IMG/VR virus record: IMGVR_UViG_3300006916_000047
Reading direction: 5' to 3' (one strand)
Length of the DNA stretch: 23,918 nt
DNA from: an uncultured virus (IMG/VR IMGVR_UViG_3300006916_000047)
Lineage: Duplodnaviria > Heunggongvirae > Uroviricota > Caudoviricetes
Position numbers and translations under genes: made by a program. Each line of letters starts with the position of its first letter. Positions within the stretch are counted from its first letter, which is position 1. The notes below the pieces were generated by a model. It saw only the letters and a program-made list of their open reading frames with translations, made no database searches and was not told the origin of the DNA. Of the stretch, positions 531 through 23,169 are shown one piece after another.

Positions 531-764
531 ATGGTTCGTAAGATGACAGATGATAGGCTAAAACAAGATGGCCGAGAGTTGGTTAAGCAATTAAGCGAAA
601 TGGCCGACACAATTAACGACATGAAAGAAATCGTGTATGAATTTGTAGGTGGAGAGAATGTTGATTTAGAAGAACTTAAGAGATTACTTTTAGGTTTTGA
701 TGCAAGAGTTTCTAATATTGAAGGAGCCTTTGCGAATATTTTTAGAAGTGCAAGGGATTCGTGA
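531..764 (+). CDS. Hypothetical small helical protein
   Basis: ORF 510..764. ATG 531, just after the upstream stop, is the likelier start. Its stop overlaps the terminase ATG (TGATG). Confidence 0.55.
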   Translation: MVRKMTDDRLKQDGRELVKQLSEMADTINDMKEIVYEFVGGENVDLEELKRLLLGFDARVSNIEGAFANIFRSARDS

Positions 765-3556: not shown

Positions 3557-3724
3557 ATGCCTCGCCAGCACTATCATATTTTTAAACATAAAGTAAGAAC
3601 CAAACTACCTAAGAAAATTAGATATGCTACCGTTTGTAGAAAGTGCAAGAAGACCAACAAAATTAGTGATTTATGTTTTACCTGCCAAATTGAACAAGCA
3701 AAGCATTGGGCAAAACCATATTGA
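3557..3724 (+). CDS. 55-aa basic C4 zinc-finger protein (not in the ORF track)
   Basis: MPRQHYHIFKHKVRTKLPKKIRYATVCRKCKKTNKISDLCFTCQIEQAKHWAKPY*. Pattern CxxC-x9-CxxC. The ATG directly abuts the upstream TAA and the ORF fills the gap between two genes. Confidence 0.7.
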   Translation: MPRQHYHIFKHKVRTKLPKKIRYATVCRKCKKTNKISDLCFTCQIEQAKHWAKPY

Positions 3725-4238: not shown

Positions 4239-5885
4239 GTGGTTGAAGAGAAGCGTCGTTTCAGTTTTACAAATTTGTTTAGGAGAACAACCCCAAAGCC
4301 AGAAGATAGGTCTATTTATAACATTGGTATTCAAGAAAGGCAACAGAATAACTTAATGACCGCACCGATTATTTATCACATCGTTCAAAATTCTGTTATC
4401 GCTAGAACCTGTATTACTCAACTTAAGCAAGAAATTTTCCGAAGAGGTTATGTCTGGGAGAAGGCCTACGAAGCAAGGTGCAAAAATTGCGGTAAAGAAC
4501 ATAAAAGACCCGTTCAAGAGTGTTCTCGTTGTGATAGCACTGACCTACAACTTCCCGATGTTAAACAATTAAAGTATGCAGAAGATTTTATTGAAGGTTA
4601 TGTCAATAAAGCAGAACAATTATTTATTGATGTTCTTAAAGAATTAGAAGACGACCTCAACATTATGGATGATGCTTACATTGTCCTTGTTAAGGAATAT
4701 TTCATTGATGGGAATCAAAAGATTAGAATGCATCGTATTAAAGAAGTTTATCGTGGCGACCCAGTGACCATGGCTATTTATTCCGATGAGTTAGGACAGC
4801 GAGGAACAAAAGGCTTTACTTGCGTCAATCATAGGCATTTCCTATCTACGGAACCCCATGAAAAATGTGAAGAATGTGGAAGCACTACTCACCCCGTTCA
4901 TTATGTGAATCGGGTGGGGGGCAAAGACCAGTATTTCATTAAGGGAGAGGTGCTTCATTTCAGCAAGTATAGCCCTTCCCGACTCTATGGACTATCGCCT
5001 ATCATCACCCTCTATAATCACATCACAACTCTTCTCGCTATGGAGAATTATGTTAATTCCTCGTACACCAAAAGCCGTATGCCGAGGGGCCTTTTGGCAG
5101 TGCAGACTCGCAACATGGATTCAATGCGTTCCTTTTGGCGTTCAGTCAAAGAAAAGATGGAAACAGACCCGCACTTTATTCCTGTTATGGGGATTGAAGC
5201 AGAAGGAGGAAAGGGTTCTGTTGAATGGATTAAGTTCATGGACAGTCTCAAGGAAATGGATTATGTCTCCGTCAAGGACGATTTAAGAGATAGGATTTCT
5301 GCGTTCTACGGTGTAAGCAAAGTCTTCATGGCTGACAACACTACAAGCGGTGGTTTGAATAATGAAGGCATGCAGATTTTGGTCACGAACAGAGCCGTTC
5401 AAATGGCACAAAATGTCTATAACAATTATGTGTTTCCGTTTTTGGTTAAGCAATTTGGAATCACTGATTGGAACTTAAAATTACCTCCAAGCGAAGAAGA
5501 GGATGAAATTGCTGTTCTTCGTAAGAGAGAGATTGAAGTAAATATTGCCGCATCTACAAAGAATCTTGGCTTTGAGGTAGAAATGGATGAAGATGGAAAC
5601 TTTACTTTCAAGAAACCTGAACCTCAACCTGAACAAACCCCTACTGAAACCGGAGATGAGCCAACAAAGAAAGACCCCCTCGCAGGTTCAAACTTAGACC
5701 AAAGAGATTTAGATGAACAAACAAGAATGTTTGCAGAAGGAGCAGGTTCAAAGCCCCAAGAAAATCCACCAGCCACAAGAAATAAAAGCAGGATGAGCGT
5801 AGGGCCAGATAAGCGAATGACTGGCTTACCGCAAGAGGCTGGAAATCAAAATGTTGATACGAGAAACGAAAGGAGGATACCCTGA
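4239..5885 (+). CDS. Portal protein with two Zn-ribbon-like insertions
   Basis: Lies between terL and the protease/MCP. Portal-like segments EVLHF, YGLSPI, MPRGLL and ISAFYGV. Cys clusters CKNC/CSRC and CVNH/CEEC. GGAGG at 4226-4230 precedes the GTG start. Confidence 0.9.
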   Translation: MVEEKRRFSFTNLFRRTTPKPEDRSIYNIGIQERQQNNLMTAPIIYHIVQNSVIARTCITQLKQEIFRRGYVWEKAYEARCKNCGKEHKRPVQECSRCDSTDLQLPDVKQLKYAEDFIEGYVNKAEQLFIDVLKELEDDLNIMDDAYIVLVKEYFIDGNQKIRMHRIKEVYRGDPVTMAIYSDELGQRGTKGFTCVNHRHFLSTEPHEKCEECGSTTHPVHYVNRVGGKDQYFIKGEVLHFSKYSPSRLYGLSPIITLYNHITTLLAMENYVNSSYTKSRMPRGLLAVQTRNMDSMRSFWRSVKEKMETDPHFIPVMGIEAEGGKGSVEWIKFMDSLKEMDYVSVKDDLRDRISAFYGVSKVFMADNTTSGGLNNEGMQILVTNRAVQMAQNVYNNYVFPFLVKQFGITDWNLKLPPSEEEDEIAVLRKREIEVNIAASTKNLGFEVEMDEDGNFTFKKPEPQPEQTPTETGDEPTKKDPLAGSNLDQRDLDEQTRMFAEGAGSKPQENPPATRNKSRMSVGPDKRMTGLPQEAGNQNVDTRNERRIP

Positions 5886-6486: not shown

Positions 6487-8322
6487 TTGTTGCTTTCTAC
6501 TTTTCTTAAAGCAGAAGAGGGCGGGGAAGCGACGAGCAAAACATATGCTCAATATGTAAAGTTATTTAACGATTTTGACTTAGCAAGAAGAATGCTTGCG
6601 CCCCTAAAAGCCCTATCCGAAGAGATAGTTATTGAAGAGGATGATTCCGAACCTTCGGGCTTAAGATTTGAGAATATTCTTGAATATAATAAACTAGGCG
6701 CAAAGAAAAATGCTGAAGCCATTTCCAATCTATTGGCTAAGAGTTTAGATGAGAGTTGGAATCTTTTAGCAGATTTGCCTTTCACGGTTGAAAGGGAAGG
6801 AGATGTTATTTTGGAACCACAGGTTCCTCCTGCCTCAAAGAAAACAAGACAGGATTTAGGCGAGGTACAATCTAAGGATGGGAAAGAAACTCGCCAAGCC
6901 GGAGAGAAAGAAAGAAAAATTAGATTAAAGCCTGAGTTGAATCTTACAAAAATTGTCAATGATATAAAAGAAGTGGCAAGTAAGACCTACGATAACGAAG
7001 ACTTAGAAGGAAAACCCTTGACCTTTGAAAAAGCCCTCATTTATTTGTATCATAAAAGAACTGGAGAAGTTCCTAGAAATGCAAAAAATCCAAAGTTAAG
7101 AGATGCTACTATTACTAATGCAAGAAAAAAAATAAAAGAAAAACTTAAGGAAGCAGAGAAGCAAAAGAAAGATGATTACGATAAAGTTTTTGAAGGTAAA
7201 GATAGAGCAGAAAAAGTAAAATTTAATGTTGTCTATAATAGAATGCAAAACTATGTAATCAAAGTGGGTCTTATTGAAGAACAACTGCAAAAAACAATTA
7301 AGGAGTCTAATGAAAGGGTTGCTGCCTTAGAAAGAGAAGCAGAAAAACCCGAATATGAAAAGGTAATTCTTAGAAGAGTGTCTGAAATTTTGCGTCAAAG
7401 ATACAAAACTCCTCGCCAAGATATTTCCGAAGACCTTCCGCCACAACAACGCCTTGAAGAAGAATCTCTTAGAGAAAGGCAGGACTTAAAAAAACCAAGT
7501 GTTGCCATTACTGGGAGAGAATATGCAACTAAAGTCAAACAAATAAAAGAACTGAATCAAATTGCTTTAGAATTTAAAAACAACCCAGACTCTCTATCAA
7601 AAAAAGCAAAGACCCTTAAAGCACAAATAGACATAGAAGTTCAAGAAGCCATTGAACAAGAGAGAGAAAAAAACTTAGAAATTAAAAATACTGCTGAAGA
7701 CGCTTTGCGATTTGTACCCAGAGTTAGAGAATTAGAAGAGTTTTTTAAGCAAGGTTCAGATTATCCAACTCTTAATGAAGTAAATGCAGAGATAAAGATT
7801 ACTGACAGATTTATAGAGCAAGAGGAAGATAAGGAAGAACAAGACCAAGATAAAAATGCATTGAGGGACTTTAAAAAAGACCTCGCTGATTTGAAAAAAT
7901 TCCATGAAGCACAGAACAATTTACAGAAAAAATTATCAAGGGCTCTTACTTCTCTTAAGGACATTGTTCCCATAGAAAGAAAAATGAAAGAAATGCTAAG
8001 TAATTATTCTGCCGATGAAGAGTTTAAATCGGCTATTGAGCAATTAGGCATTGCTGTTGCTCTTGAATCAACAAAGGATATGAAAATGTTCCCAGATTTA
8101 CAGCCCTTACTTCAAGATAAAGAAGAAAAGACATTAAAAGAAATGTTGGGCGGGACAGAACTTGCGCCACTATTAGAAGACAAAGAAGCATTTAAAATAT
8201 TAGAGCAGTTTGACGAATTTATTCAAGCAGTAGATAATCTTGATGATGGTTTTTCTGGTCTTGAAGAAGACTTTGAAGAACTTGCAGGAAAATATAGTAA
8301 AATTAAGTCTTTATTTGAATAA
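6487..8322 (+). CDS. Large coiled-coil, E/K-rich hypothetical protein
   Basis: 611-aa ORF with TTG start after TGAGGTGAT; no catalytic motif recognised; N-terminus contains FLKA. Confidence 0.7.
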   Translation: MLLSTFLKAEEGGEATSKTYAQYVKLFNDFDLARRMLAPLKALSEEIVIEEDDSEPSGLRFENILEYNKLGAKKNAEAISNLLAKSLDESWNLLADLPFTVEREGDVILEPQVPPASKKTRQDLGEVQSKDGKETRQAGEKERKIRLKPELNLTKIVNDIKEVASKTYDNEDLEGKPLTFEKALIYLYHKRTGEVPRNAKNPKLRDATITNARKKIKEKLKEAEKQKKDDYDKVFEGKDRAEKVKFNVVYNRMQNYVIKVGLIEEQLQKTIKESNERVAALEREAEKPEYEKVILRRVSEILRQRYKTPRQDISEDLPPQQRLEEESLRERQDLKKPSVAITGREYATKVKQIKELNQIALEFKNNPDSLSKKAKTLKAQIDIEVQEAIEQEREKNLEIKNTAEDALRFVPRVRELEEFFKQGSDYPTLNEVNAEIKITDRFIEQEEDKEEQDQDKNALRDFKKDLADLKKFHEAQNNLQKKLSRALTSLKDIVPIERKMKEMLSNYSADEEFKSAIEQLGIAVALESTKDMKMFPDLQPLLQDKEEKTLKEMLGGTELAPLLEDKEAFKILEQFDEFIQAVDNLDDGFSGLEEDFEELAGKYSKIKSLFE

Positions 8323-9182: not shown

Positions 9183-12134
9183 ATGCGCCTCTCAAACATT
9201 GAGAAGGATAAGCGTCCTTCGGAAGAGATTCTTCGTTTGTTTGAGAAAACGAGGGTGGCTTACCTTTCTGCCGCCAATGACCCCAATGAATACGGGAATC
9301 GTTGGCGTAAAACCGTGGATGTCATTATTGAGTCCTACAATGACTTGGACTCAGCCGCAAATGAAATAAAGGATTTTATTTCGGAAGACCTCATAGAAGA
9401 TAATGACATCAAAGACCCTTCCTCGCTTAAGGCAAAGGAGTTATTTGAAGCCATTAAAAATTTGCGCTATGCTTCGGATTTGGTAGATGACCCATTCGCA
9501 AAGCGTTTCAAAGGCAAGGTTTTGGAGGCATTACTTGAAAGTCCCGAACAGATGGTCAAGTTTGTGCATTATGCTTTACGAGAAGACAAGGAACCTCTTC
9601 CCAAAGAAGTTTATGCAATTAAAGACATGCAAGAAGACGATATTACCTATGGTTTAGAGGGTCTTGACCTAGAACCAGACGATATAGCCCTGTATATTAT
9701 TGAACATTACGGGGATGGAAAAGACTCCAAACGAACAGAAAGGGCTGTTAAAGCCGCTATGGAAATGTTAGACTTGTTAATGCTCTCAAAATACGATGAA
9801 GGCGACTTAGATGACCTAAAAGATATTGAGGGTGTAGAAACCCAAAGAGAGACAAAGGCTCTCTCTACAATTAAAAAGGAAAAGAAATCAGAAAAAGAAA
9901 AATCGCTGTCTGATTTTATTGTTCCAAATAAACCTATGTATAGAATTTTTGATATTGATGACATTAATCAACTAAAAGGTTTTAGTGGAGAATGGTTTGT
10001 TCAAGAAAAATACGATGGTATGAGAATTCAACTGCATAAGATTGATAATAATGTCAAGGTATTCTCTTACAATAAAAAACTTATTACAGATAAGTGCGGA
10101 GAAATTGTAAAGGAATTGAAGGCTAAACACTTTGGCGATTGCATTCTTGATGCAGAATTAATTCTTTTTGATGGGGAGGAATCCTTGCATCGGGCCGATA
10201 CAATCGCCCATGTGTTTAAAAATAAATATCCTAAAGCAACCCTCAAGTGCCATGTCTTTGACATTATGCGACATGAGAATCAAACGCTTCTTGATGAAGA
10301 GTTAGAAAACAGAATGACAATTATGTTCAACAATTATGCTCAACATTCAGCCGATGTTCTTAAATTCCCCTCAAAGAAAGATACTCGTAGAGCAGATAAT
10401 CTAAAAGATATTGCTGAATATGCAGAAAAAATTATGGAAATGCCTACTTCCGAGGGAGTCGTTATCAAAGATGCTACTTCCACCTATTATGTAGGAACAA
10501 AGAAGAACCCCAAGTGGATTAAGTGGAAGAAGTTTGTGGACTTAGATGTTGTCGTTCTTGACAAGAAGAAGACTAAAAGCAATCTATATTCTTATACCGT
10601 GGGTATTGGGCCTGTTGAGGAAGAAAACAAATTTACACAAGAAGTTAATGGCATCAAATACATGAATGTGGGTAAGGCCCTCAACACAAAAATTTCGGTT
10701 GATGTTGGTGAAATTATTCGTGTAAAGGTTGATGAGGTTAAGAATGCTGGTGATAGATATACTCTTTACTCCGCAAAGGTGATTGAAGTCCCCGAAGTAG
10801 AATACCCAGATAAAATCATCACTTTAGAATTATTAGCACAAGATACTAAAAAGTCTCTAAACTATTCTATTGAAGGATTGAAGAAAGGCATCACAATTAC
10901 TGACCATATTCACGGTACTGCTACCATTATTTGTAAATCCGATATGAGTGGATTTACTGTTTATGGTTTTGAAGAAGACAATCTCATGTCAAAGAATGCC
11001 ATCATCAATTTAGACGATTGGAAATCTCAAGCAGAAGAAATCATGAAAACAAAAGCAGGGACATTAACTACTGCTATTACAAATTATCTTCAAAACATGG
11101 GAGCAAAGACCGTAAAGCAAGTTCATAACTTCTTAATGTCAAAACATAAAGGTCTGTATGAAGATGTTGTTGATGGTGGCTTACAGGGTCTTAAAGAATG
11201 GGCAAATGCAAGAGAACATATTGAATTTAAAGAAAATAAATTGCATGGAGATGCTATCCTCAAAAGACTCTTAAAATCTCCAGTTTTAATCCATAGAGAT
11301 GCCGAGCCAGAAGAAAAGGAAATTGAGGATATTACTATTGACTATTCAAATAAAGATGGTGAATGTTGTAATAAATTAAAAGAGGCTGTTAAAACAAACA
11401 GAATACTGGTTCTTGATGTTCTTTCTGACGACTATGGCACTTATGAAAACTTTCGTAATAACATAGTAGAAGAAGAACAGAGCAATTGGGCAAAAACATA
11501 TGAAGAAGAAGTTAAGGTCATAGAAGATTCAATAGATATTTTAGAGTGTGATAGGTTATTAGGAGTGATAGATTACTTTCTCAATAATAAAGTTGGTGAT
11601 GTAGATTATGGCCCATTAGAACAAGCCTTAGAAGAATATCAAAATTGCATTCAAGGTGATTCTAGTTTTACAGACAAATATGCTATGCTTAAAGCAGAAT
11701 ATAAAACACCAGAAAAATACCGAGAAGGGCAATTTAAGTTATACTCTCGCAAAGATGACAATCTAAACATGGTGATGAAACTTGGTGATGAGACAATCAA
11801 CTGGTTAATTGATGTTCAAAACGAAGAAGAAATGTTTGACCTATTCGGAGCCGCAGGAAAGTACCCTGCTGAAGTTGCTCAAAACATTGACAGAGAAAAA
11901 ACAGTTGATGCCGGAACGGTCAAGTTAGGAATACAGAGAAACGGCTACCATGAATATTTCTTAGAAGGGAATAAGTTTGAGACGAAGTTTCATGTGCGAT
12001 ACCTGCCGGTTGGTGAAAATAAAATGTGGCTTGCTTGGACTGGCTATGAACAAAAACCCGCAGATAAAGAAGGCGATGAGGGGTTATGGGATATCTATGA
12101 GGACAAATTCGCAAGCAAGAAAATACCGAGATAA
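9183..12134 (+). CDS. lig: ATP-dependent DNA ligase with long N- and C-terminal extensions
   Basis: Nucleotidyltransferase motifs I (QEKYDGMR), III (ILDAEL), IIIa (HVFDIM), IV (EGVVIK) and V (WIKWKK), then an OB-fold-like segment. About 240 aa extra at the N-terminus and over 400 aa extra at the C-terminus. Confidence 0.9.
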   Translation: MRLSNIEKDKRPSEEILRLFEKTRVAYLSAANDPNEYGNRWRKTVDVIIESYNDLDSAANEIKDFISEDLIEDNDIKDPSSLKAKELFEAIKNLRYASDLVDDPFAKRFKGKVLEALLESPEQMVKFVHYALREDKEPLPKEVYAIKDMQEDDITYGLEGLDLEPDDIALYIIEHYGDGKDSKRTERAVKAAMEMLDLLMLSKYDEGDLDDLKDIEGVETQRETKALSTIKKEKKSEKEKSLSDFIVPNKPMYRIFDIDDINQLKGFSGEWFVQEKYDGMRIQLHKIDNNVKVFSYNKKLITDKCGEIVKELKAKHFGDCILDAELILFDGEESLHRADTIAHVFKNKYPKATLKCHVFDIMRHENQTLLDEELENRMTIMFNNYAQHSADVLKFPSKKDTRRADNLKDIAEYAEKIMEMPTSEGVVIKDATSTYYVGTKKNPKWIKWKKFVDLDVVVLDKKKTKSNLYSYTVGIGPVEEENKFTQEVNGIKYMNVGKALNTKISVDVGEIIRVKVDEVKNAGDRYTLYSAKVIEVPEVEYPDKIITLELLAQDTKKSLNYSIEGLKKGITITDHIHGTATIICKSDMSGFTVYGFEEDNLMSKNAIINLDDWKSQAEEIMKTKAGTLTTAITNYLQNMGAKTVKQVHNFLMSKHKGLYEDVVDGGLQGLKEWANAREHIEFKENKLHGDAILKRLLKSPVLIHRDAEPEEKEIEDITIDYSNKDGECCNKLKEAVKTNRILVLDVLSDDYGTYENFRNNIVEEEQSNWAKTYEEEVKVIEDSIDILECDRLLGVIDYFLNNKVGDVDYGPLEQALEEYQNCIQGDSSFTDKYAMLKAEYKTPEKYREGQFKLYSRKDDNLNMVMKLGDETINWLIDVQNEEEMFDLFGAAGKYPAEVAQNIDREKTVDAGTVKLGIQRNGYHEYFLEGNKFETKFHVRYLPVGENKMWLAWTGYEQKPADKEGDEGLWDIYEDKFASKKIPR

Positions 12135-12150: not shown

Positions 12151-12179
12151 CCAGATAACACAACGAAGGTTTGTTGGAA

Positions 12180-13382
12180 ATGTCCCTCCTACTCAAGAGA
12201 GAACAACTACAAGAGTTTCGGATTCTAAAAAGCGACAACCTAATGATTGGTGGATATGCAAGCATTGAAATTGTTGATAAGCAAAATGATTTAATCACAC
12301 TCAAAGCATTAAACGAAGCAGTAGATAAATACATGGAAAACCCAAAGTTTAGAAATGTAATGACAAATCATTCAAATGTTCAAGTCGGAGAAGTAATAAA
12401 ATCATACCGAGACAAAAGCGGAAAGTTATGGAAAACCGAAGTTGATGATGTAGGATTCTTTGTAGTAATTAAATTAAGAGACGACATAGAAAAAGCAAAG
12501 GAAATTAACCGAGGCATCAGAAAAGGTTCATTGAGGTCATTTAGTATTGGAGGACAGGCAATTCAAAAAATAAAGAAGAGTCATCCAGAATTAGGTCAAT
12601 ACAATGAAATAAGCAAATTAGAACTACACGAAATTACTATCTGCGAAAAAGGAATTAACCCCGAAGCAAAATTTGATATTTTGAAACAAGACAAAAAACA
12701 GGTGAAAAACATGAGCAAACTGGAAAAAGCACTGGAAGAGTTGGATGCACTAATGAATGAAGTGAATACTCTCCGAAAGGAAGAAGAAGAAGATATGGGC
12801 AAACTCGCTGATGAAGACGAGAAAATGATGCCTGAAAAGATGATGGACGAAAAGATGGAAGATTTGGAGTCTATGGAAACAGAAGACCCTGAAAGAGAAG
12901 CAAAGGCATATGTCTCTACTCTTGACGGTGCTGGTGTTGAAATTGGCGAACCTGCTGACAGAATCGTTATTGACAACGGAAAGCCAAGAGCAACGGATAT
13001 GCCAGTTGTTAAGGCATTTGAGAACACTGAATTGGAAACCCTTGACCTAAGCGTTGGAAACATTGAGAAGGCTTACGAGGCTTTCCGTCAAGAACAACTT
13101 GAGAAGTTGGCTTATGACAACCTCCAAAAGCAATTTGCACATCGCTTTGAGGCTGAAAAGGGAACCCGTGAGAACATCCTCGCAAAGTCCCAATACGATG
13201 CCGCTTCCGAGATTGCATCTCTTAAGGATGAATTTACCGCACTTCGCAAGTCTTTGACTTCCGAAAAGGCCCAAATCATCAAGGCTCAAGAAGAAGCCGC
13301 AATTACACTCCCATCAATGGATGAACTAGCCGAAATGGATTGGAACACGATTCATAAAATGGCTTTTGGAGGAAACCTTTGA
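12180..13382 (+). CDS. Prohead (capsid maturation) protease fused to a scaffold domain
   Basis: HK97/S78-like pattern IGGYAS..VDKQNDLI..NH..VG..SFSIGG..LHEITI..NPEA, then an acidic coiled coil. Directly upstream of the MCP. ATG 12180 is preferred over TTG 12171. Confidence 0.9.
   Translation: MSLLLKREQLQEFRILKSDNLMIGGYASIEIVDKQNDLITLKALNEAVDKYMENPKFRNVMTNHSNVQVGEVIKSYRDKSGKLWKTEVDDVGFFVVIKLRDDIEKAKEINRGIRKGSLRSFSIGGQAIQKIKKSHPELGQYNEISKLELHEITICEKGINPEAKFDILKQDKKQVKNMSKLEKALEELDALMNEVNTLRKEEEEDMGKLADEDEKMMPEKMMDEKMEDLESMETEDPEREAKAYVSTLDGAGVEIGEPADRIVIDNGKPRATDMPVVKAFENTELETLDLSVGNIEKAYEAFRQEQLEKLAYDNLQKQFAHRFEAEKGTRENILAKSQYDAASEIASLKDEFTALRKSLTSEKAQIIKAQEEAAITLPSMDELAEMDWNTIHKMAFGGNL
12711..13382 (+). 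CDS. Putative nested in-frame scaffold protein (223 aa)
   Basis: Internal AGGTGA (12700-12705) lies 5 nt before in-frame ATG 12711, at the protease/coiled-coil boundary. Confidence 0.6.
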   Translation: MSKLEKALEELDALMNEVNTLRKEEEEDMGKLADEDEKMMPEKMMDEKMEDLESMETEDPEREAKAYVSTLDGAGVEIGEPADRIVIDNGKPRATDMPVVKAFENTELETLDLSVGNIEKAYEAFRQEQLEKLAYDNLQKQFAHRFEAEKGTRENILAKSQYDAASEIASLKDEFTALRKSLTSEKAQIIKAQEEAAITLPSMDELAEMDWNTIHKMAFGGNL

Positions 13383-13391
13383 GGTGATAAC

Positions 13392-14726
13392 ATGGTAGGA
13401 TACATTAACACTATTGCAGATTTAGAAGCACAAACTTATGGACTTAACTTCAACGGAGCAAACAATATGCTCTTGAAGACCGCCGGAGCCGTTAGTGGAC
13501 TCCACGGTGGCCATGATGCCGCTACTCAAACCTCCCCAACTACTGGTATTGCTGGAAACCTTTACAATGTTCTTTTCGGACAGAAGGTTTGGTCAATGCT
13601 AAACCGTGAAGTGAACGCTCTTTCTGTTATGTCAAAGCGTCCTTATTCTTCAAGCGGTTGGAGAGTTCTTTCAAAGCGTCCTGCTGGTGGAACGGGCAAC
13701 ACCCATTCCTTTACCCAAACTGGAACGGATTTGGCTGGAACTGATGCTCCACGCCTTGACCATATCGGTGGTGTGCCAGAGAATGCTTCTCTTTCAACTT
13801 CCGGTGATGGTTTAATCGCTATTGCTCCCGAATACAGCACTCTTTTCATGAGTCCAAAAATCGTTGCTCATCAGTTTGATTTCAGCGAATTGGCTATGGA
13901 AATGGCTCAAATTGATGATGGTATCGGTGATATTAGAGCGCAAATGCGTGAAGATATGGGTAAGCATCACGCTGAATCCCAAAACCTCATGTTGATGGCT
14001 CCTCTTGAAGCATACCTTCAAGCAGATAAGACCAACGCCGCCGCAGAGATTGAGAGAAACTATACTTCGCTTTACAAGATTGTTTCGTCTAACGCTGAGT
14101 TAGACCAAATGGACGCAGATAACTTCCCTGTTTCTTCAATTACCAACGACATTTCGGAAGCATACCACATTTACGGAACCAACCGTGATAGTGCTTCTTT
14201 CCTTGATTGTGTCGTTAATGGTGCAAGCAGTTATGCTTCGGGTGGTTCTCGGCCATTTACTTTGAGCATTCTCAACGCAACGCTTCGTGAATTGCGACAG
14301 AACGGTGGCTCTCCAAAGGTTATTCTTACTGGATATGACACCCTTCAAACGCTTTCCGACCTCTTGCAGAGCCAAGAGCGATTTATGGACAGAAAGGAAA
14401 TTGTGCCAACCGTGAACGGTGTTCGTGGTGTTAAGGGTGCAGAAGTTGGTTTCCGTGTGGCAACCTACTACGACATTCCTTTGATTCCAGTTGCTCAAAT
14501 GCAAAGCACTTCGGCTGATTCGGGAACCATTTCGGATATGCTCTTATTGGACACTGACCACCTTTGGATGGCTGTTATGAAACCAACTCAATACTTTGAA
14601 GATGGTATTAGCAACGGAAACCCATTCGGCGTCGGACAACTCGGCAACCGAGCATTGTACCGAACAATTGCTGAAATGGGCTGTTCGTACTTCAAGGGTC
14701 AAGGCAAAATTACCAACCTTAAGTGA
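13392..14726 (+). CDS. Major capsid protein (HK97 fold)
   Basis: 444 aa, follows the protease/scaffold, strong GAGGTGA RBS. C-terminal pattern (..ATYYDIPLIP..MLLLDTDHL..GQGKITNL) is typical of HK97-fold capsids. Confidence 0.88.
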   Translation: MVGYINTIADLEAQTYGLNFNGANNMLLKTAGAVSGLHGGHDAATQTSPTTGIAGNLYNVLFGQKVWSMLNREVNALSVMSKRPYSSSGWRVLSKRPAGGTGNTHSFTQTGTDLAGTDAPRLDHIGGVPENASLSTSGDGLIAIAPEYSTLFMSPKIVAHQFDFSELAMEMAQIDDGIGDIRAQMREDMGKHHAESQNLMLMAPLEAYLQADKTNAAAEIERNYTSLYKIVSSNAELDQMDADNFPVSSITNDISEAYHIYGTNRDSASFLDCVVNGASSYASGGSRPFTLSILNATLRELRQNGGSPKVILTGYDTLQTLSDLLQSQERFMDRKEIVPTVNGVRGVKGAEVGFRVATYYDIPLIPVAQMQSTSADSGTISDMLLLDTDHLWMAVMKPTQYFEDGISNGNPFGVGQLGNRALYRTIAEMGCSYFKGQGKITNLK

Positions 14727-14736
14727 GGTGTTTTAG

Positions 14737-15099
14737 TTGGCACTTATCAAAGCAATTACGGTCTTAGCAGACCATAAAGGTATGACAACACCTAGAGTTT
14801 CGGGAGACGAATATTTCGTGGATGCAGTTATTGATATTAGCCAAGTCGTTGCGGCTGGTTCAGTGATTCCTGCCTCCGATTTTGGTCTTAACACCATTAC
14901 TGCGGTTATGATTACAGGAGACGACAATCCTAACAACAGCACGAATGACATCGCTATCAAAGTAGAATGCAGTGCTACTGGTGCTTATGAATCAGCGACT
15001 TCGGTTGCTTTTATGCATACAACAATGGCTAGTGGAACAACGCTTTCTAACGATGCTAACGGCGGAAGTGTTCGTGTTCGTGTTTATGGAAACCTTTGA
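14737..15099 (+). CDS. Probable capsid decoration / minor structural protein
   Basis: 120 aa, beta-rich, directly after the MCP; TTG start after TGAGGTG. Confidence 0.55.
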   Translation: MALIKAITVLADHKGMTTPRVSGDEYFVDAVIDISQVVAAGSVIPASDFGLNTITAVMITGDDNPNNSTNDIAIKVECSATGAYESATSVAFMHTTMASGTTLSNDANGGSVRVRVYGNL

Positions 15100-15108
15100 G
15101 GTGTTAAT

Positions 15109-15432
15109 TTGGCTCTAGTCAAATTTTCTTCCCAATCAAATGTGGGGAGATTAGAAACACCTTTTGGTTTGCTCCGAACAAATGCAGAGTTAGAAGTGGG
15201 AACAGAATGGGCTATTGCTAAAATTGGCGATAGAAACCTTATGTTCACTTTCGTTGAGTCCGATAGAGAAGCCTTAGCAGAAACTACTGAAAAACAGTTA
15301 GTAATTTTGCGAAAGCAACTTGAAGAAGACCTTTCCGATGCTTCTGCGCTTTGTGGCCTATTACTCCCTAAAGCAAAGAAGACTCTTAAGAAGAAGACTA
15401 CCAAAAAGGCTTCTTCTGCGCTAAAGGAGTAG
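15109..15432 (+). CDS. Hypothetical protein with Lys-rich C-terminal tail
   Basis: 107 aa; TTG start after TGAGGTG; ends KAKKTLKKKTTKKASSALKE. Confidence 0.65.
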   Translation: MALVKFSSQSNVGRLETPFGLLRTNAELEVGTEWAIAKIGDRNLMFTFVESDREALAETTEKQLVILRKQLEEDLSDASALCGLLLPKAKKTLKKKTTKKASSALKE

Positions 15433-15436
15433 GCGG

Positions 15437-15450
15437 AAAGCCTAAATATA
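15437..15450 (+). promoter_or_regulatory. Putative BRE/TATA promoter for the downstream membrane/GTPase operon
   Basis: GAAAGCC-TAAATATA: purine-rich BRE-like bases then an AT-rich box, ending 31 nt before ATG 15481. Nearly the same spacing as at 12143. Confidence 0.5.
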
Positions 15451-15480
15451 GCCCCCGCAAGTGGGGAATGAAGAGAGGTT

Positions 15481-15807
15481 ATGCGTATGCCACAATGCCG
15501 TTCAAGTGGAGTCAAGACAGCCAATGCCGCTATTTTTGCGGGCCAAGTTAGACTGATTTCAATTCATGCCGTCCTTACAGGAACGAAGCCGACAACAATT
15601 AAGGTCTTTGATAATGCTTCTGCCGCAAGCGGAACAGAGTTAGCAAGGATGATTGTTGCTCAAACCGACCCTGCCGACCCTGCCGCAAGAACAGGGCCGG
15701 AAATGATGGAGTATGATATGCATGGCGTATTGGCTGTAAATGGTCTTTATTTGAGCATTTCTTCTGGAACGGGAGAAGGTGCGGCAGTTTCCGTTGAATT
15801 TAGTTGA
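15481..15807 (+). CDS. Small beta-sandwich-like, probably structural protein
   Basis: 108 aa rich in small residues with alternating beta patterns (TIKVFDN, GLYLSI). Confidence 0.6.
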   Translation: MRMPQCRSSGVKTANAAIFAGQVRLISIHAVLTGTKPTTIKVFDNASAASGTELARMIVAQTDPADPAARTGPEMMEYDMHGVLAVNGLYLSISSGTGEGAAVSVEFS

Positions 15808-15816
15808 GGTGATATA

Positions 15817-16203
15817 ATGGCGGCTCTTAATCAAGACACTCGCTTAGTTATGACAATTCTTTTTGTCGGGGCATTGAGTGGAGCAAATGTATATGCTTAT
15901 GCTATGATTGGTCTAGGGTTTCCTTATGGGCCTTTAGCCCACTCAATATTATTTGGCCTTGGAACAATAGGAGCAATCATGGTTGTTAAAGCCCTCTTTG
16001 ACTTATCCTTAAATGATAAAATTGAGATGTGGCTTCTTGATAGAAAGATTGCGGCATACTGGGAAAGAAAGGCTAGAGACGAGCAACAAAAACAAAAAAT
16101 GCGAGAAAGTGCAAAACAGTTTTCAGTTCCATTTGCCTACTCTCAACCTGTTGAACAGGAAGAAAATACTCTTGGGACGGAATTCTTAGCCACACTACAA
16201 TGA
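15817..16203 (+). CDS. Membrane protein, 2 predicted TM helices plus cytoplasmic coiled coil
   Basis: Hydrophobic stretches LVMTILFVGALSGANVYAYAMI and ILFGLGTIGAIMVVKALF; charged C-terminus; TGAGGTGAT RBS. Confidence 0.75.
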   Translation: MAALNQDTRLVMTILFVGALSGANVYAYAMIGLGFPYGPLAHSILFGLGTIGAIMVVKALFDLSLNDKIEMWLLDRKIAAYWERKARDEQQKQKMRESAKQFSVPFAYSQPVEQEENTLGTEFLATLQ

Positions 16204-16212
16204 GGTGGTTAA

Positions 16213-16431
16213 GTGGTCTTTGGAGATTTGATGGGCTTTTCCGATTCGGATTACGCTTACAATGCTCAAAGAGCGCACTCTGCTGACATTTTCTTTTTGA
16301 AAATGAGAGCCGTTTTTTGGGGCTTTTGTGCCTGTCTTTCGGGTTTTCTTATTGGAAACATTCTTGGTGTTTTTGATATAAACATCATGGGTTTCCTGTT
16401 TGACACTTTGTTAAACGGGTGGGGGCATTGA
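16213..16431 (+). CDS. Small membrane protein
   Basis: 72 aa; hydrophobic AVFWGFCACLSGFLIGNILGVF; GTG start after TGAGGTGG. Confidence 0.7.
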   Translation: MVFGDLMGFSDSDYAYNAQRAHSADIFFLKMRAVFWGFCACLSGFLIGNILGVFDINIMGFLFDTLLNGWGH

Positions 16432-16432
16432 T

Positions 16433-16936
16433 ATGTGGAAAGAAATATTGAAGGCTCCTGTAAGGACTAGGAATGAGGTTTTCTTTCAAGATAAGCCCAA
16501 AAAATATAGAAGTAAATTTTTAGATTCGGGAGAGGAATTTGAGATTTTAGATGATGTGGGAAGTAGAATCACAGACTCAAAATTTGAAGGTTTAAGAGCA
16601 TGGGAATCCGAAGATAAAATGGCTAGAGGGACATTTAGAAAAGTTTCCAAATCTAAAAAAGGCCCACTTTGGCACATTGACGCATTTTCCGTAAATAAAA
16701 AATTAATGAATCAAGGCAAAGGAGAAGAATACCTTAGAGAAATGGTCAATGATTTGAAAGAAATAGAGGATTTGAAAATATATGGGCAACCTGTTCATAG
16801 AGCAGTATCATTTTGGAAGAGAATGAAAAGAAAGGGGATTGTGGATTTTGTTTTGCCACCCATTAATATGTATAGAGATGTGAGCGGAGGTTCAGTATTA
16901 AGGCCGCCAACTAGAGATTTAACAAGGCGTGGTTAA
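16433..16936 (+). CDS. GNAT-family acetyltransferase-like protein with N-terminal MWKEILKA tag
   Basis: HIDAFSVNKKLMNQGKGEEYL resembles GNAT motif A (acetyl-CoA-binding QGxG); AVSFWKRM resembles motif B. Confidence 0.7.
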   Translation: MWKEILKAPVRTRNEVFFQDKPKKYRSKFLDSGEEFEILDDVGSRITDSKFEGLRAWESEDKMARGTFRKVSKSKKGPLWHIDAFSVNKKLMNQGKGEEYLREMVNDLKEIEDLKIYGQPVHRAVSFWKRMKRKGIVDFVLPPINMYRDVSGGSVLRPPTRDLTRRG

Positions 16937-16938
16937 AA

Positions 16939-17607
16939 ATGTCCCTAATGACGGGCTTTGCTATTTTAGTTGGTGAAGCAATTATAGGATTCTACAAAAA
17001 AATTCATGCGATTAACTTCGGAGTTTATGGTGCAACAATGGTTGGAAAAACAACACTCAGTCATCAATTAAGAACAAGAGGAGAAGTGCCACAGATTAAT
17101 CAAAGAACAGTTGGCAAACATAGAGCATCAAGAAAGAATATTAAAATTGATGGAAACTCACACACAGTAAGAAGCGCAGATATTGGAGGAGAAGCAATTT
17201 ACTGGAAAGAATGGGAAAAGGATATGAAAGAACGCCGAGTCAAATATGTTATATTTATGATTGACCATAGGCATTTAGATAGCACTTCAAATTTAGACCA
17301 CCAATTAGCATGGAAATTTTTAATAGATACAATCATTTCAAACACATGGTCAAATGGCAAAAAGAAAAAAGACTCTGATTTTCCAATGGCAGTAGGTATT
17401 TGGGCAAATAAATATGATATATGGGGAAAGAAATATCCACTAGCAGAAGGGCAACAGATAGACAAACATGAAATATTTGAACCGTTTGCATACGGAATGA
17501 GAAAACTTAACGACAAAGGAATACCTTGTTTTAAATATATTGTATCAGCAAAGTCGGAACCCGAAATGGTTTATAGAGGAATTACCACGATGATAAAGGA
17601 TTACTGA
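16939..17607 (+). CDS. Ras-superfamily small GTPase, Arf/Sar1-like features
   Basis: G1 GATMVGKTT, G2 RTVG, G3 DIGGE, beta4 VIFMID, G4 NKYD and G5 SAK, in the right order and spacing; hydrophobic/amphipathic N-terminal helix. Confidence 0.88.
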   Translation: MSLMTGFAILVGEAIIGFYKKIHAINFGVYGATMVGKTTLSHQLRTRGEVPQINQRTVGKHRASRKNIKIDGNSHTVRSADIGGEAIYWKEWEKDMKERRVKYVIFMIDHRHLDSTSNLDHQLAWKFLIDTIISNTWSNGKKKKDSDFPMAVGIWANKYDIWGKKYPLAEGQQIDKHEIFEPFAYGMRKLNDKGIPCFKYIVSAKSEPEMVYRGITTMIKDY

Positions 17608-17612
17608 TTATT

Positions 17613-18152
17613 ATGTGGAAAAATATCTTGAAGGAACGCATTGTGCGAGACGGTAAAGAAATTGAATTTTCTAGGGAAATTTATCATGCTAGAACGGAAG
17701 AACAAATGTTAGACAATATTCGCAAACGCTTGAATGAAGTAGAGAAAAAACACCCAGTAATTGCAGACATTATTTCCCAAATATTAGAGTTAGAAGAAAA
17801 AAAGACCCTTTCCACTAAAAGAGCCTTTCAATCAATAGTCGCTATGTTAATTGAGATTGATATGAGAATTCATGTCTTTCCCCGCCGTAAAAAGAGAGCA
17901 AATTGGGACGATATAAACCCCATAGAAGAAGTACAAGAAATTGTTGCTATTCAAAACCTTATTGAGTCAGCAGGTTTGTTAGAAAAACACCCAAGAGAAA
18001 AGGAGTTGGTTTTAAGCCAAATTAAGTTAATGCGGAAAAGAGGGATAACTTCAACAGAAGCGCTTTCTGTAATTAAACCTCTTTTGAGAAAATTAAAAAT
18101 TAAGATTGTAAATAGAAAGGGAAGACTTAGAGCATGGAAATATAGGGAGTGA
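17613..18152 (+). CDS. Hypothetical helical protein with N-terminal MWKNILKE tag
   Basis: 179 aa; basic C-terminus that could be winged-helix-like (weak). Confidence 0.7.
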   Translation: MWKNILKERIVRDGKEIEFSREIYHARTEEQMLDNIRKRLNEVEKKHPVIADIISQILELEEKKTLSTKRAFQSIVAMLIEIDMRIHVFPRRKKRANWDDINPIEEVQEIVAIQNLIESAGLLEKHPREKELVLSQIKLMRKRGITSTEALSVIKPLLRKLKIKIVNRKGRLRAWKYRE

Positions 18153-18156
18153 TTAA

Positions 18157-18810
18157 ATGTATCAACAACAAATTATAGGACAAAACGCACCAACGGCATT
18201 CAACCCAATGTTGAATCCAATTGAACAGGCAAGAACGGCAGGTAATGTAATAGAATACCAGTTTATGAATATTAAACCAAAGAAGAAAGAAAAAGAATTA
18301 ATTAAAGTTCTTTCTCCTGAACCAAAGTCCTTTCTTTTCTTCAAGTTCGGAAAGAAATTTAATCTCAAAGACCGTTGCGTAGTCTGCGGAATGCACCATA
18401 TTTGGGAATCGGGCGACCATTTAAGACCGCCTATTCCCTTAGAAAAAGTGAAGAAGGGACGACCCCTTAGAGGAACATACTGCCCTAAACACGCATCAAT
18501 GTTTAAACAATTAGAAATGCTTGAGCAACAAATTCTTGCTGAGAAACATGGCTTAGACTTCAAGGCATTCAAGCCAAGGATGCCGAAAGCCCTTTCGGGA
18601 AAACCCACTACTCACCTAAGCAAAACCGAAGTGGCCTCACTCACGGCGGCAGGTTATTTTATTAAACCACCCACTCTACAAGATAACAGGTCGGCCACGA
18701 ATGAGGCCATAGAGTTGGTCGGGCAAATTAATATTTTGACGGATAGATTAAACTACTTGATGATTCAAAACGGAGTTAAAGCACCAGAACAACTTGAAAA
18801 GGAGGAATAA
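18157..18810 (+). CDS. Zn-finger-like protein with C-terminal coiled coil
   Basis: CVVC..HH and CPKH clusters; C-terminal heptads (IELVGQINILTDRLNYL). Confidence 0.7.
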   Translation: MYQQQIIGQNAPTAFNPMLNPIEQARTAGNVIEYQFMNIKPKKKEKELIKVLSPEPKSFLFFKFGKKFNLKDRCVVCGMHHIWESGDHLRPPIPLEKVKKGRPLRGTYCPKHASMFKQLEMLEQQILAEKHGLDFKAFKPRMPKALSGKPTTHLSKTEVASLTAAGYFIKPPTLQDNRSATNEAIELVGQINILTDRLNYLMIQNGVKAPEQLEKEE

Positions 18811-18812
18811 AT

Positions 18813-19463
18813 ATGGGATTTTTAGGAACAAGTAATGGAACTGTTTTAGGAGCAGTTCAAGCACAGAACGACCAGCAGTTTAAGAATGTAAATAATTTAC
18901 TTTCTTTGCAGGATAACCATGTAGAAGAATTTTTCCAATACCATGGCGAAATGTTTTTGGCCGCACTAGAACAATTGATGGAAGATGTCGTTCAAAGAAC
19001 AGTCTCGGATATGTTGGGCAAATTGTCTTTTACAAATAATGGCGGTAATATGACGGTTAATCCAGATACTCTTATGGAGTACCAAAAAATCACACAAGAA
19101 AATATTGATTTAGACATTCAAAAAATTCTTGGGGCGGCAATCAATACCGAAGTCATCATGCAAAGAAAAATGGCAAAACAGCAATACCTTGAATCTCAAG
19201 GCTTTGGTGGGGGACAACCACAACAACCCTCCGCAGGTATGGCTGTGGCAGGGCTAACGGGAAATACTCAACAATACCAACAGATGCAGGGAGCCGTGAA
19301 CAATGGTTCCGGCTACCCTATTCCTCCAACTGGAACAGATGGCTACGGAAGGCCTTATTGGGTTGATGCTCAAGGGCAAATGTCATATGAGCCGCCATCA
19401 AGTGGGCTTCATTTAGGTGCGGCAATCCAAAAAGGTGCGGCTTGGGCTAAATGGTTAATGTGA
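18813..19463 (+). CDS. Helical protein with Q/G-rich linker, WW-like motif and amphipathic C-terminal helix
   Basis: AGGAGG RBS; GGGQPQQP and QQYQQMQG low-complexity region; GRPYWVD..MSYEPP; ends LGAAIQKGAAWAKWLM. Confidence 0.7.
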   Translation: MGFLGTSNGTVLGAVQAQNDQQFKNVNNLLSLQDNHVEEFFQYHGEMFLAALEQLMEDVVQRTVSDMLGKLSFTNNGGNMTVNPDTLMEYQKITQENIDLDIQKILGAAINTEVIMQRKMAKQQYLESQGFGGGQPQQPSAGMAVAGLTGNTQQYQQMQGAVNNGSGYPIPPTGTDGYGRPYWVDAQGQMSYEPPSSGLHLGAAIQKGAAWAKWLM

Positions 19464-22953: not shown

Positions 22954-23169
22954 ATGTGGGAAGATATTTTAAAAAGAGTGGACAATAACTACGACAGATT
23001 AGAAAGTGCTATTGAAGATGCAATAGATGAAGCAGAAAATACAAAGAAACCCCAATATATCAAAGAGAGCGATGATGGGACATACTTTATAGACAGTAAA
23101 AAACAAAGATATTATGGCGATTACATAGTAGCAATTGTTAATGCCGATGGCAAAGTAGAAAGAAAGTGA
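22954..23169 (+). CDS. Small hypothetical protein with N-terminal MWEDILKR tag
   Basis: ORF 22948..23169; ATG 22954 chosen by analogy with the other tagged ORFs. Confidence 0.65.
   Translation: MWEDILKRVDNNYDRLESAIEDAIDEAENTKKPQYIKESDDGTYFIDSKKQRYYGDYIVAIVNADGKVERK

Follow-up and report, generated by a model that had tools for sequence, protein, structure and literature searches.

What would a tailed virus of prokaryotes do with an Arf-like small GTPase, and where does such a gene belong? In eukaryotes, small GTPases of the Arf type act as master switches of membrane traffic, and the question is raised by P0001, the product of an open reading frame (ORF) in the uncultured virus IMG/VR IMGVR_UViG_3300006916_000047, which was analysed over its whole stretch of 23,918 nucleotides (hereafter the window). 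A model working from the letters and the ORFs, whose account is here called the sequence-only reading, had described P0001 as an Arf/Sar1-like small GTPase with Glu at the place of the catalytic Gln. The present analysis showed that P0001 is a deeply divergent viral branch of the prokaryotic Arf-like group and that its gene is a conserved gene of the magrovirus late module. For its function we favour, with slightly more confidence than doubt, a membrane-anchored GTP switch that organises a late viral membrane complex for egress.

The window is a strand-coherent block of tailed-virus genes and represents a late (virion) module. The large terminase (TerL), the portal, the prohead protease and the major capsid protein (MCP) were all found in it, in agreement with the sequence-only reading, which had placed the GTPase gene in a tailed virus. 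The relatives of the GTPase, on contigs of ~60-105 kb from marine metagenomes, include QKV95_gp088 of the Poseidoniales virus YSH_150918, a protein annotated as hypothetical, and YSH_150918 is the type member of Aoguangviridae, order Magrovirales (PMC10768690). The window is therefore a magrovirus (Magrovirales), that is, a virus of Poseidoniales / Marine Group II archaea, and the host setting is that of uncultured, abundant ocean archaea.

The translation and motifs of the ORF agreed with those read earlier from the letters, namely, intact G1-G5 with RTVG in G2 and DIGGE plus YWKEW in G3. Three alignments were used, A1 with 21 members, A3 with 26 magrovirus-only sequences, and A2 with distant members. 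Within G1, residues G31, G36 and K37 were invariant in A1 and T38 and T39 in A3, the G4 residues N157, K158 and D160 were invariant in both A1 and A3, and D81, G84 and W92 of the G3 region were invariant as well. When taken as a test for Ras superfamily motifs, G1-G5 were all kept and invariant over 26 sequences from several clades. Further, at E≤1e-3, 353 proteins matched the GTPase, the 120 among the matches listed showing 70-92% identity, and a relative was encoded on 278 IMG/VR stretches. Across P0001-P0121, the P-loop and D[IVLM]GGE were kept in 121/121 proteins, NK[YHF]D and VSAK each in 120/121, and RT[VI]G in 119/121. No longer or fused form of the GTPase was found at E≤1e-3 among 2061 candidates, which is weak evidence.

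The NKxD, SAK and DxxG motifs and the fold place the protein in the Ras superfamily with certainty, and not in a non-Ras P-loop family, as the sequence-only reading had allowed it might turn out. The AlphaFold2 (AF2) model of the GTPase was confident (pLDDT 86.3, pTM 0.82) and showed a Ras-like G domain, for which Foldseek returned Rab7, Rab33, H-Ras/K-Ras, a mimivirus Rab and Arl3 at a probability of 1.00 and near E 1e-9. In a Foldseek-independent fold search, the top rows were tied within 1 Z, with Arf-family structures among the tied best. The 50 BFVD fold matches listed were all Nucleocytoviricota proteins. The Rab, Ras and Ran proteins of these giant viruses closely copy families of their eukaryotic hosts, whereas the magrovirus GTPase forms a private, deeply divergent family in an archaeal tailed virus, with a hydrophobic candidate anchor and a fixed gene neighbourhood.

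Within the superfamily, scores of P0001 against family profiles were low, being 19.0 bits for MMR_HSR1 and 13.8 bits for Ras in Pfam, both below cut-off, 11.9 bits (E 0.14) against a gathering score of 25 bits for SRPRB (PF09439), and 20.3 against a cut-off of 42.5 for NCBIfam small_GTP (TIGR00231); PHROGs gave no match. Since the window protein stays below every Pfam gathering score, the case for its Arf affinity is built on intermediate sequences, on profiles and on the fold. A single-sequence search of the PDB gave Rab33B as the best match at only E 0.3. With the A3 profile, the best true GTPase match was 8OUN (E 1.7e-6), the GDP form of GerdArfR1, described as an Asgard archaeal Arf-family GTPase (bioRxiv 10.1101/2024.02.28.582541), followed by Rab33B (~1e-4), Arl8/Arl10 (5e-4 to 9e-4), KRas (0.008) and SRbeta (0.009), and the RecA concatemers ranking around 8OUN are P-loop-only repeats.

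Consistently, the Pfam Arf gathering score (22.3 bits) was passed, by matches covering nearly the full length, by the relatives P0167 (57.2 bits), P0176 (36.5 bits), P0163 (27.2 bits) and P0177 (24.5 bits), and a Chloroflexota relative passed it as well (31.6 bits). At E≤0.1, Pfam Arf was matched by 7/21 A1 members, and in a run on 13 A1 members by the distant P0163, P0167, P0176 and P0177 only. Aligned by hhalign, and with no canonical Arf profile as comparator, the magrovirus profile matched the P0167/P0224/P0225 group at 99.4% (E 7e-22) and the Chloroflexota group at 98.2% (E 3e-14). An exhaustive phmmer search of 1.84 billion cluster representatives returned 64 proteins at E≤1e-3, and since no canonical Arf, Ras or Rab was among them, these 64 are specifically closer to the window protein; the non-magrovirus relatives in this set include P0167, P0176, P0163 and P0177. 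The search with the A2 profile was flooded by two-domain Der GTPases and added only P0224 and P0225 as new relatives.

Compared with the Arf family (GerdArfR1 8OUN, Arf6/Arl3/Arl8), the window protein shares the G-domain fold with a preceding N-terminal helix, the DxGG of G3, a Trp eleven residues past the G3 Asp and hhhD after strand 4; the last three, seen here as the GG pair, Trp92 eleven residues past Asp81, and FMIDH, we take to be of Arf/Sar/SRbeta/G-alpha style. It differs from Arf in a uniformly hydrophobic helix, in Glu for the catalytic Gln, in Arg for Pro before the switch-I Thr, and in an insert of ~20 residues with a Lys run (residues 134-150) ahead of G4, and it passes no Arf threshold. 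These results indicated that a place in the Arf/Sar/SRbeta-like branch is likely, the best affinity by A3 profile, intermediates and fold being to Arf/Sar1/SRbeta, in line with the Arf/Sar1-like label of the sequence-only reading, and that membership of the Arf family proper is not established. The prokaryotic Arf-like GTPases (Chloroflexota L162-L176; archaeal P0167, P0224 and P0225) resemble the window protein in DVGGE/DVGGD, IIFLIDH and NKxDxW, and are unlike it in being cellular, in carrying P-T in switch I, in having other neighbours and in passing Pfam Arf.

Three sets of loci were compared to follow the gene through the magroviruses, namely, set A with 80 loci related to the window, set B with 80 loci kept of 127 relatives of P0138, and set C with 4 relatives of P0136. 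The GTPase was present in 80/80 set-A loci. Its distant relatives P0134, P0136, P0138, P0140 and P0157 were 31-38% identical and belonged to clusters with members on 59-104 kb contigs; P0134, when used as the query, retrieved no viral contig. Three or more deep lineages of magroviruses have the gene, with 31-38% identity between lineages, and its G5 place reads ATK or ATR in set B. The median pairwise dN/dS was 0.065 (258 pairs) in the window clade and 0.051 (74 pairs) in a distant clade, and the gene is under strong purifying selection.

The sequence-only reading had named a recent and unconserved capture from the host as an alternative. A host gene captured recently as a moron with no conserved role is, like a non-Ras P-loop NTPase, scarcely credible. 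Both ORFs that flank the GTPase in the window are indeed variable morons, but the GTPase itself is in every set-A locus and in two further lineages at the identities given above, with a dN/dS of ~0.06 (0.05-0.07), and its relatives at E≤1e-3 number only 64, of which the full-length ones checked lie on 59-104 kb contigs or on short contigs of unknown origin. The exhaustive phmmer protein search is the sole basis on which the gene was taken to be absent from the host.

The relationships were then placed on a quick maximum-likelihood tree of 48 hand-picked rows, in which every clade representative was joined by 8 set-B ORFs drawn at random from 76, by 8 distant relatives and, as the outgroup, by 7 Chloroflexota proteins. 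All magrovirus sequences were joined with an SH-aLRT of 98, a grouping that carries a long-branch warning and has the long-branch unknown P0179 inside, and the window clade and its Gln-bearing sister were joined at 99. The prokaryotic Arf-like GTPases root the magrovirus clade in this tree, and the nearest non-viral relatives are cellular genes. In detail, P0224 is encoded on a 30.8-kb contig (L161) of a groundwater archaeal metagenome-assembled genome, beside GluRS, Toprim primase and phosphorylase genes, and the Chloroflexota homologues lie on contigs of up to 1 Mb.

Two observations were made around these cellular genes. On L161, P0224 shares an island with genes for a tyrosine integrase and Fic/DOC and with a fragment of a transposase gene (2497-3573, 6776-7267 and 9410-9805), which hints that the GTPase family is mobile in cells too. 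In Chloroflexota, a conserved gene for a 210-230-amino-acid (aa) protein lies downstream of the DVGGE GTPase on the plus strand (L170 10611-11243, L163 11490-12170, L173 10663-11355), directly adjoining it in L170 and L173 and with a short ORF between in L163. Its product matches no Pfam family, has an N-terminus of roughly xLxIEYxLxGxxRGYxFT, and may be a cellular partner of the Arf-like GTPase family.

The residue following DxGG, position 85, was compared across clades. Where Arf-type proteins read DVGGQ with the catalytic Gln, the window protein reads DIGGE, with the GG pair kept. In the window clade, Glu was found in 81/81 loci and in 121/121 database proteins, and in its 60%-identical sister cluster Gln was found in 15/15. 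Set B showed Gln in 50, Glu in 19, Asp in 6 and His in 1 (n=76), set C showed His in 4/4, the P0134 cluster Gln in 6/6, and the P0157 cluster Ala or Ser. The cellular outgroup and unplaced relatives had Glu in 12 and Asp in 3 (n=15), including DVGGE in 7/7 Chloroflexota relatives, Glu in the archaeal P0167 and P0224, and Asp in the archaeal P0225. The His that characterises SRbeta at this place is thus matched by set C and not by the window. His is also given for Sar (PMC3199381), and a Sar1-type His was likewise seen throughout set C, where the window protein has Glu.

The sequence-only reading had framed the Glu as a Q-to-E change, and this framing was not supported. Given that Glu or Asp is found in the closest cellular relatives and that the other magrovirus clades vary between Gln, His, Asp, Ala and Ser, an acidic residue at position 85 is, on the sequences compared, a trait of the wider family and a recurrent state rather than a virus-specific loss of Gln. 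The order of change between Glu and Gln inside the window clade is a polytomy in the 48-row tree.

A second feature of the catalytic site lies in switch I. T57 aligned with the switch-I Thr of Rab33B and of GerdArfR1, and the residue before it is Arg in 168/170 magrovirus sequences, as compared with P-T in 13/15 outgroup sequences. The R-T pair was counted in 81/81 sequences of set A, 4/4 of the sister cluster, 76/76 of set B, 4/4 of set C and 3/3 for P0157, P0221 and P0149 together; counts were made on a MAFFT alignment in which sets B and C were offset by two columns and read by eye. In MglA, Arg53 directly before Thr54 was experimentally shown to be an intrinsic arginine finger, according to PMC3199381. 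As MglA carries the same Arg-Thr pair in this role, it is plausible that the site is completed in cis, and Arg56 may be a candidate for a built-in arginine finger.

The likeness to MglA extends to this Arg immediately before the switch-I Thr. MglA is described as lacking the conserved G3 Asp, and an MglB (roadblock/LC7) gene within four genes is given as a criterion for its family (PMC4316618). Since D81 is invariant in the family of the window protein, membership of the MglA family fails; the window protein moreover has no MglA-type sequence similarity and no recognised MglB/roadblock neighbour. The latter agrees with the earlier statement from the letters alone that no such partner is recognisable nearby, as no roadblock or MglB family was found by Pfam or PHROGs in the 23 or 24 window ORFs scanned, a search of which fold comparison was not part.

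These two residues also bear on whether the protein cycles at all. It could be a hydrolysis-poor pseudo-switch, permanently loaded with GTP and serving as a membrane adaptor that recruits soluble partners, and the fixed Glu at the catalytic place in 81/81 window-clade loci, the Ala or Ser in the P0157 cluster and the lack of any GAP-like or GEF-like family recognisable nearby by Pfam or PHROGs would suit such a protein. However, the other residues seen at the position (Gln, Glu, Asp and His) are polar and able to hold a water, the Arg before the switch-I Thr in 168/170 sequences is hard to explain without catalysis, and Ras Q61E is reported to hydrolyse GTP faster, not slower. We regard the pseudo-switch as improbable.

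The N-terminus of the window protein (MSLMTGFAILVGEAIIGFYKKIH) was modelled by AF2 as a helix at residues 2-22 (pLDDT 58-71), with Lys20-Lys21 on the G-domain side. Its first 18 residues have a mean Kyte-Doolittle value of 1.78 and an Eisenberg hydrophobic moment of 0.19, and a high mean with so low a moment means that the helix is hydrophobic all round and not amphipathic. The cellular P0224 had a weakly hydrophobic N-terminus (Kyte-Doolittle 0.77) that looked amphipathic by eye, although its computed moment was 0.01. SRbeta has an N-terminal transmembrane anchor, for which the helix of the window clade is hydrophobic enough, and the layout of the window protein looks more like this anchor than like the amphipathic helix of Arf. 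An N-terminal amphipathic helix, released on GTP binding, is presented as the defining feature of Arf in the preprint on GerdArfR1 (bioRxiv 10.1101/2024.02.28.582541). The helix is accordingly a candidate membrane anchor, with an inferred topology in which the G domain is cytoplasmic. Of the membrane-inserting helix suggested from the letters alone, the hydrophobic helix was retained, its transmembrane nature is not assured, and the helical analysis proposed along with it gave no Arf-like amphipathic helix.

An SRbeta-like layout raises the possibility of a host-takeover factor, that is, an SRbeta-like receptor that redirects protein targeting, or a switch that disturbs host division or motility. 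The chance of this seems small to us, as Pfam SRPRB stayed far under its threshold (11.9 vs 25 bits), no SRX, SRalpha-like or longin-like partner was recognised by Pfam or PHROGs, and the close association with four viral genes, kept in three lineages, speaks for a complex of viral proteins.

The gene neighbourhood was analysed by blastp clustering of the gene-strand ORFs of 160 loci and the window (2411 ORFs). In set A, the order is MCP, three small genes, cluster 7, cluster 8, the GTPase, cluster 1, cluster 16 and two large genes (coordinates for the window in Table 1). The two membrane proteins upstream were each found in 79/80 set-A loci (cluster 7 by tblastn), cluster 7 with Kyte-Doolittle windows >1.6 and placed two genes ahead of the GTPase in the listed set-A loci, and cluster 8 directly ahead of it in 62/74 three-gene loci. 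No insert followed the GTPase in 55/74 set-A loci. In set B, a giant ORF of 2310-2356 aa, a ~180-aa membrane protein (cluster 11) and a ~80-aa protein (cluster 15) precede the GTPase, and cluster 1 (~297 aa), the Gln-rich cluster 5 and, further on, the terminase follow it. In set C, the order is a cluster-11 homologue (E 1e-15 and 1e-18), a 72-79-aa protein, the GTPase, a cluster-1 homologue and a Gln/Gly/Asn-rich protein.

The gene for the Cys/His protein (cluster 1) always followed that of the GTPase in sets A, B and C. It formed one blastp cluster of 155 members over sets A and B, with homologues in set C at E 3e-44 and 9e-31. For the Gln/Gly/Asn-rich protein, hhalign joined cluster 16 with the set-B cluster 5 at a probability of 72.9% (E 3.1e-5), and the cluster 16 HMM found a set-C protein in L180 (E 7.9e-9) and gave no match in L177. 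Hence, on sequence similarity, the linkage of the GTPase and the Cys/His protein is solid in all three lineages, and the Gln-rich protein joins them in most. The small membrane proteins upstream in set A are matched to those of sets B and C more weakly, by position and character. The ORFs of the cassette are on the same strand with gaps of 2-10 nt in the window, an operon-like packing, and as the cassette also moves as a block, it can be argued to be a functional unit.

The Cys/His protein is probably a zinc protein. Invariant in 17 sequences were C74, G78, V98, G101-R102, T107-Y-C-P110 and H112. It had no Pfam, PHROG, PADLOC or PDB match, the search of the PDB with its profile giving a single match at E 2.3 and that of the ESM Atlas scores ≤0.82, which is chance level, and its AF2 model was poor (pLDDT 58, pTM 0.41). 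PADLOC, run on 9 cassette and neighbour proteins, gave nothing beyond a chance-level Cas13c match (E 0.0087). ArfGAPs have a Cys4 zinc finger, and an ArfGAP-like reading of the Cys/His protein was supported by no search.

The place of the cassette is also what speaks for a role in the virion. Its products, namely, the hydrophobic proteins, the Gln/Gly-rich protein and the GTPase, could be virion-borne internal or ejection proteins that enter the host envelope with the incoming particle and build a DNA conduit there, with the GTPase gating or powering this step. In set A, the cassette is embedded among structural genes, with MCP and three small head-completion-like genes ahead of it and large putative tail genes behind, in set B it follows the giant ORF and precedes the terminase region, and podovirus ejection proteins are membrane-active and encoded among late genes. 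Still, none of the cassette proteins matches a structural family of PHROGs, the cassette changes its place with respect to head and tail genes from clade to clade, and we know of no precedent for a GTPase in the virion of a tailed virus, for which reasons we think this role unlikely.

We return to the membrane-anchored egress switch. In such a mechanism, the hydrophobic N-terminal helix would tether the GTPase to the cytoplasmic membrane of the host and leave its G domain on the cytoplasmic side, as in SRbeta. The protein, with NKxD and SAK intact, is predicted to bind GTP, and would work as a nucleotide switch with a self-contained catalytic site, in which Arg56 might act as the built-in arginine finger by analogy with MglA and the polar residue after DxGG (Glu85 in the window) might position the water. 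Late in infection, and this is the most speculative step, the switch would organise a viral membrane complex with the products of the co-travelling genes, that is, the two small membrane proteins upstream and the Cys/His and Gln/Gly-rich proteins downstream. The complex would then let virions out by remodelling or breaching the envelope of the host, or would time their exit. A more specific proposal, that the five genes form a membrane machine under GTPase control, in which a virus-private Arf-like switch times or carries out virion release, we consider doubtful.

Several results weigh against the egress switch or the family placement beneath it. The Arf profile of Pfam (PF00025; gathering 22.3 bits) gave no match to P0001 at E≤1, the window GTPase passes no Pfam or NCBIfam cut-off, and Foldseek ranked Rab and Ras as high as Arf. 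The two P0134-clade sequences (2/2) have S-T and not R-T, and the Ala or Ser of the P0157 cluster, together with the wide variation at position 85, could mean that hydrolysis is inessential or that a partner supplies the residue. The N-termini of other magrovirus clades are less hydrophobic (Kyte-Doolittle 1.04-1.28), and a true transmembrane helix is for this reason not assured. The link between the upstream membrane proteins is weak, with cluster 7 and cluster 11 joined by hhalign at a probability of 4.9%. The location of the cassette within the late region differs among sets A, B and C, and its place in set A, between head-completion and putative tail genes, suits a virion or ejection role equally. 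GTP binding, hydrolysis, membrane insertion, expression time and interactions are, finally, all points that we infer.

Searches of collections and literature yielded no earlier account of such a protein. No small GTPase was found in PHROGs, and none of 50,697 phage records was matched by tblastn, although archaeal virus records, or that of this genome itself, may be absent from these. A full-text literature search found no paper linking magrovirus, Marine Group II virus or Caudoviricetes to a small GTPase, and the term GTPase is absent from PMC5434244, PMC10160649 and PMC11706807 and from the supplements of PMC5434244 and PMC11706807, a scope that excludes Zhou et al. 2023 (YSH_150918). Some relatives bear the automatic JGI label 'GTPase SAR1 family protein'.

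Conserved as a late gene beside membrane proteins in a tailed virus of archaea, the GTPase offers a testable candidate for a virus-host membrane process. The family adds an Arf-like lineage of prokaryotes and viruses whose catalytic place can hold Glu or Asp and whose viral members have an Arg in switch I, and these are natural variants for studying Arf-type GTP hydrolysis without a classical GAP. If the five-gene machine were real, prokaryotic viruses would have in it their first egress or lysis system governed by a small GTPase, and an Arf-type membrane switch would be at work outside eukaryotes and Asgard archaea.

Table 1. Positions in the window of the GTPase, its motifs, the neighbouring genes and the virion genes.
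Feature	Position	Strand	Basis or remark
Small GTPase P0001, 222 aa, ATG start	16939..17607	+	ORF and translation
N-terminal hydrophobic helix, residues 1-22, with K20-K21	16939..17004	+	AF2 and Kyte-Doolittle; candidate membrane anchor
G1/P-loop, G31-A-T-M-V-G-K-T-T39	17029..17055	+	sequence
G2/switch I, R56-T57-V-G	17104..17115	+	alignment to Rab33B and GerdArfR1
G3/switch II, D81-I-G-G-E85 ... W92, with Y88-W89-K-E-W92	17179..17214	+	sequence
G4, N157-K-Y-D160 (guanine specificity)	17407..17418	+	sequence
G5, S203-A-K205	17545..17553	+	sequence
128-aa membrane protein (cluster 7), charged Gln/Lys-rich tail	15817..16203	+	hydrophobic segment ~39-65
72-aa small membrane protein (cluster 8)	16213..16431	+	hydrophobic windows at residues 33-63
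Variable accessory ORF, 167 aa, start MWKEILK	16433..16936	+	match in 3/80 set-A loci
Variable accessory ORF, 179 aa, start MWKNILK	17613..18152	+	match in 2/80 set-A loci
217-aa Cys/His protein (cluster 1)	18157..18810	+	blastp cluster; no known family
216-aa Gln/Gly/Asn-rich protein (cluster 16)	18813..19463	+	in 71/80 set-A loci
TerL (large terminase)	761-2188		Pfam/PHROGs scan of window ORFs
Portal	4239-5885		Pfam/PHROGs scan
983-aa protein with ATP-dependent DNA ligase domain	9183-12134	+	Pfam 2.9e-29, residues 264-449
Prohead protease	12171-13382		Pfam/PHROGs scan
Major capsid protein (MCP)	13392-14726		Pfam/PHROGs scan

Accessory ORFs are inserted beside the GTPase in a minority of the 74 set-A loci, upstream in 12/74 and downstream in 19/74, and fall into at least 11 unrelated sequence clusters. 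Those of all clusters start with a common heptapeptide, MW[FKWE]x-I[LI]-K. In the window, three plus-strand ORFs start with MWxxI[LI]K, all of them accessory, that is, the two that flank the GTPase (16433-16936 and 17613-18152) and a third at 22954-23169. This start might serve as a tag for targeting or cleavage, or might be a trace left by a mobile gene-cassette mechanism. The giant ORF upstream of the set-B cassette (2310-2359 aa; L112 176-7108, plus strand) had no Pfam match at E≤1e-3, and counterparts of it were found in L084, L086, L088 and L102.

Elsewhere in the window, the 983-aa gene with the ligase domain lies between the portal region and the prohead protease, within the virion module, and its product had a homologue in 60/80 related loci. 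The 452-aa ORF immediately after TerL (2198-3556, plus strand) gave a weak PHROG match to an HNH endonuclease (E 2.4e-4) and had zero homologues among the 54 set-B loci in which TerL has a homologue; an inserted mobile endonuclease is one possible reading. The G+C content was 0.44-0.45 over the capsid and head-completion genes (13001-16000), compared with 0.33-0.42 elsewhere, and over the same 13001-16000 the GC skew dropped to ~0.

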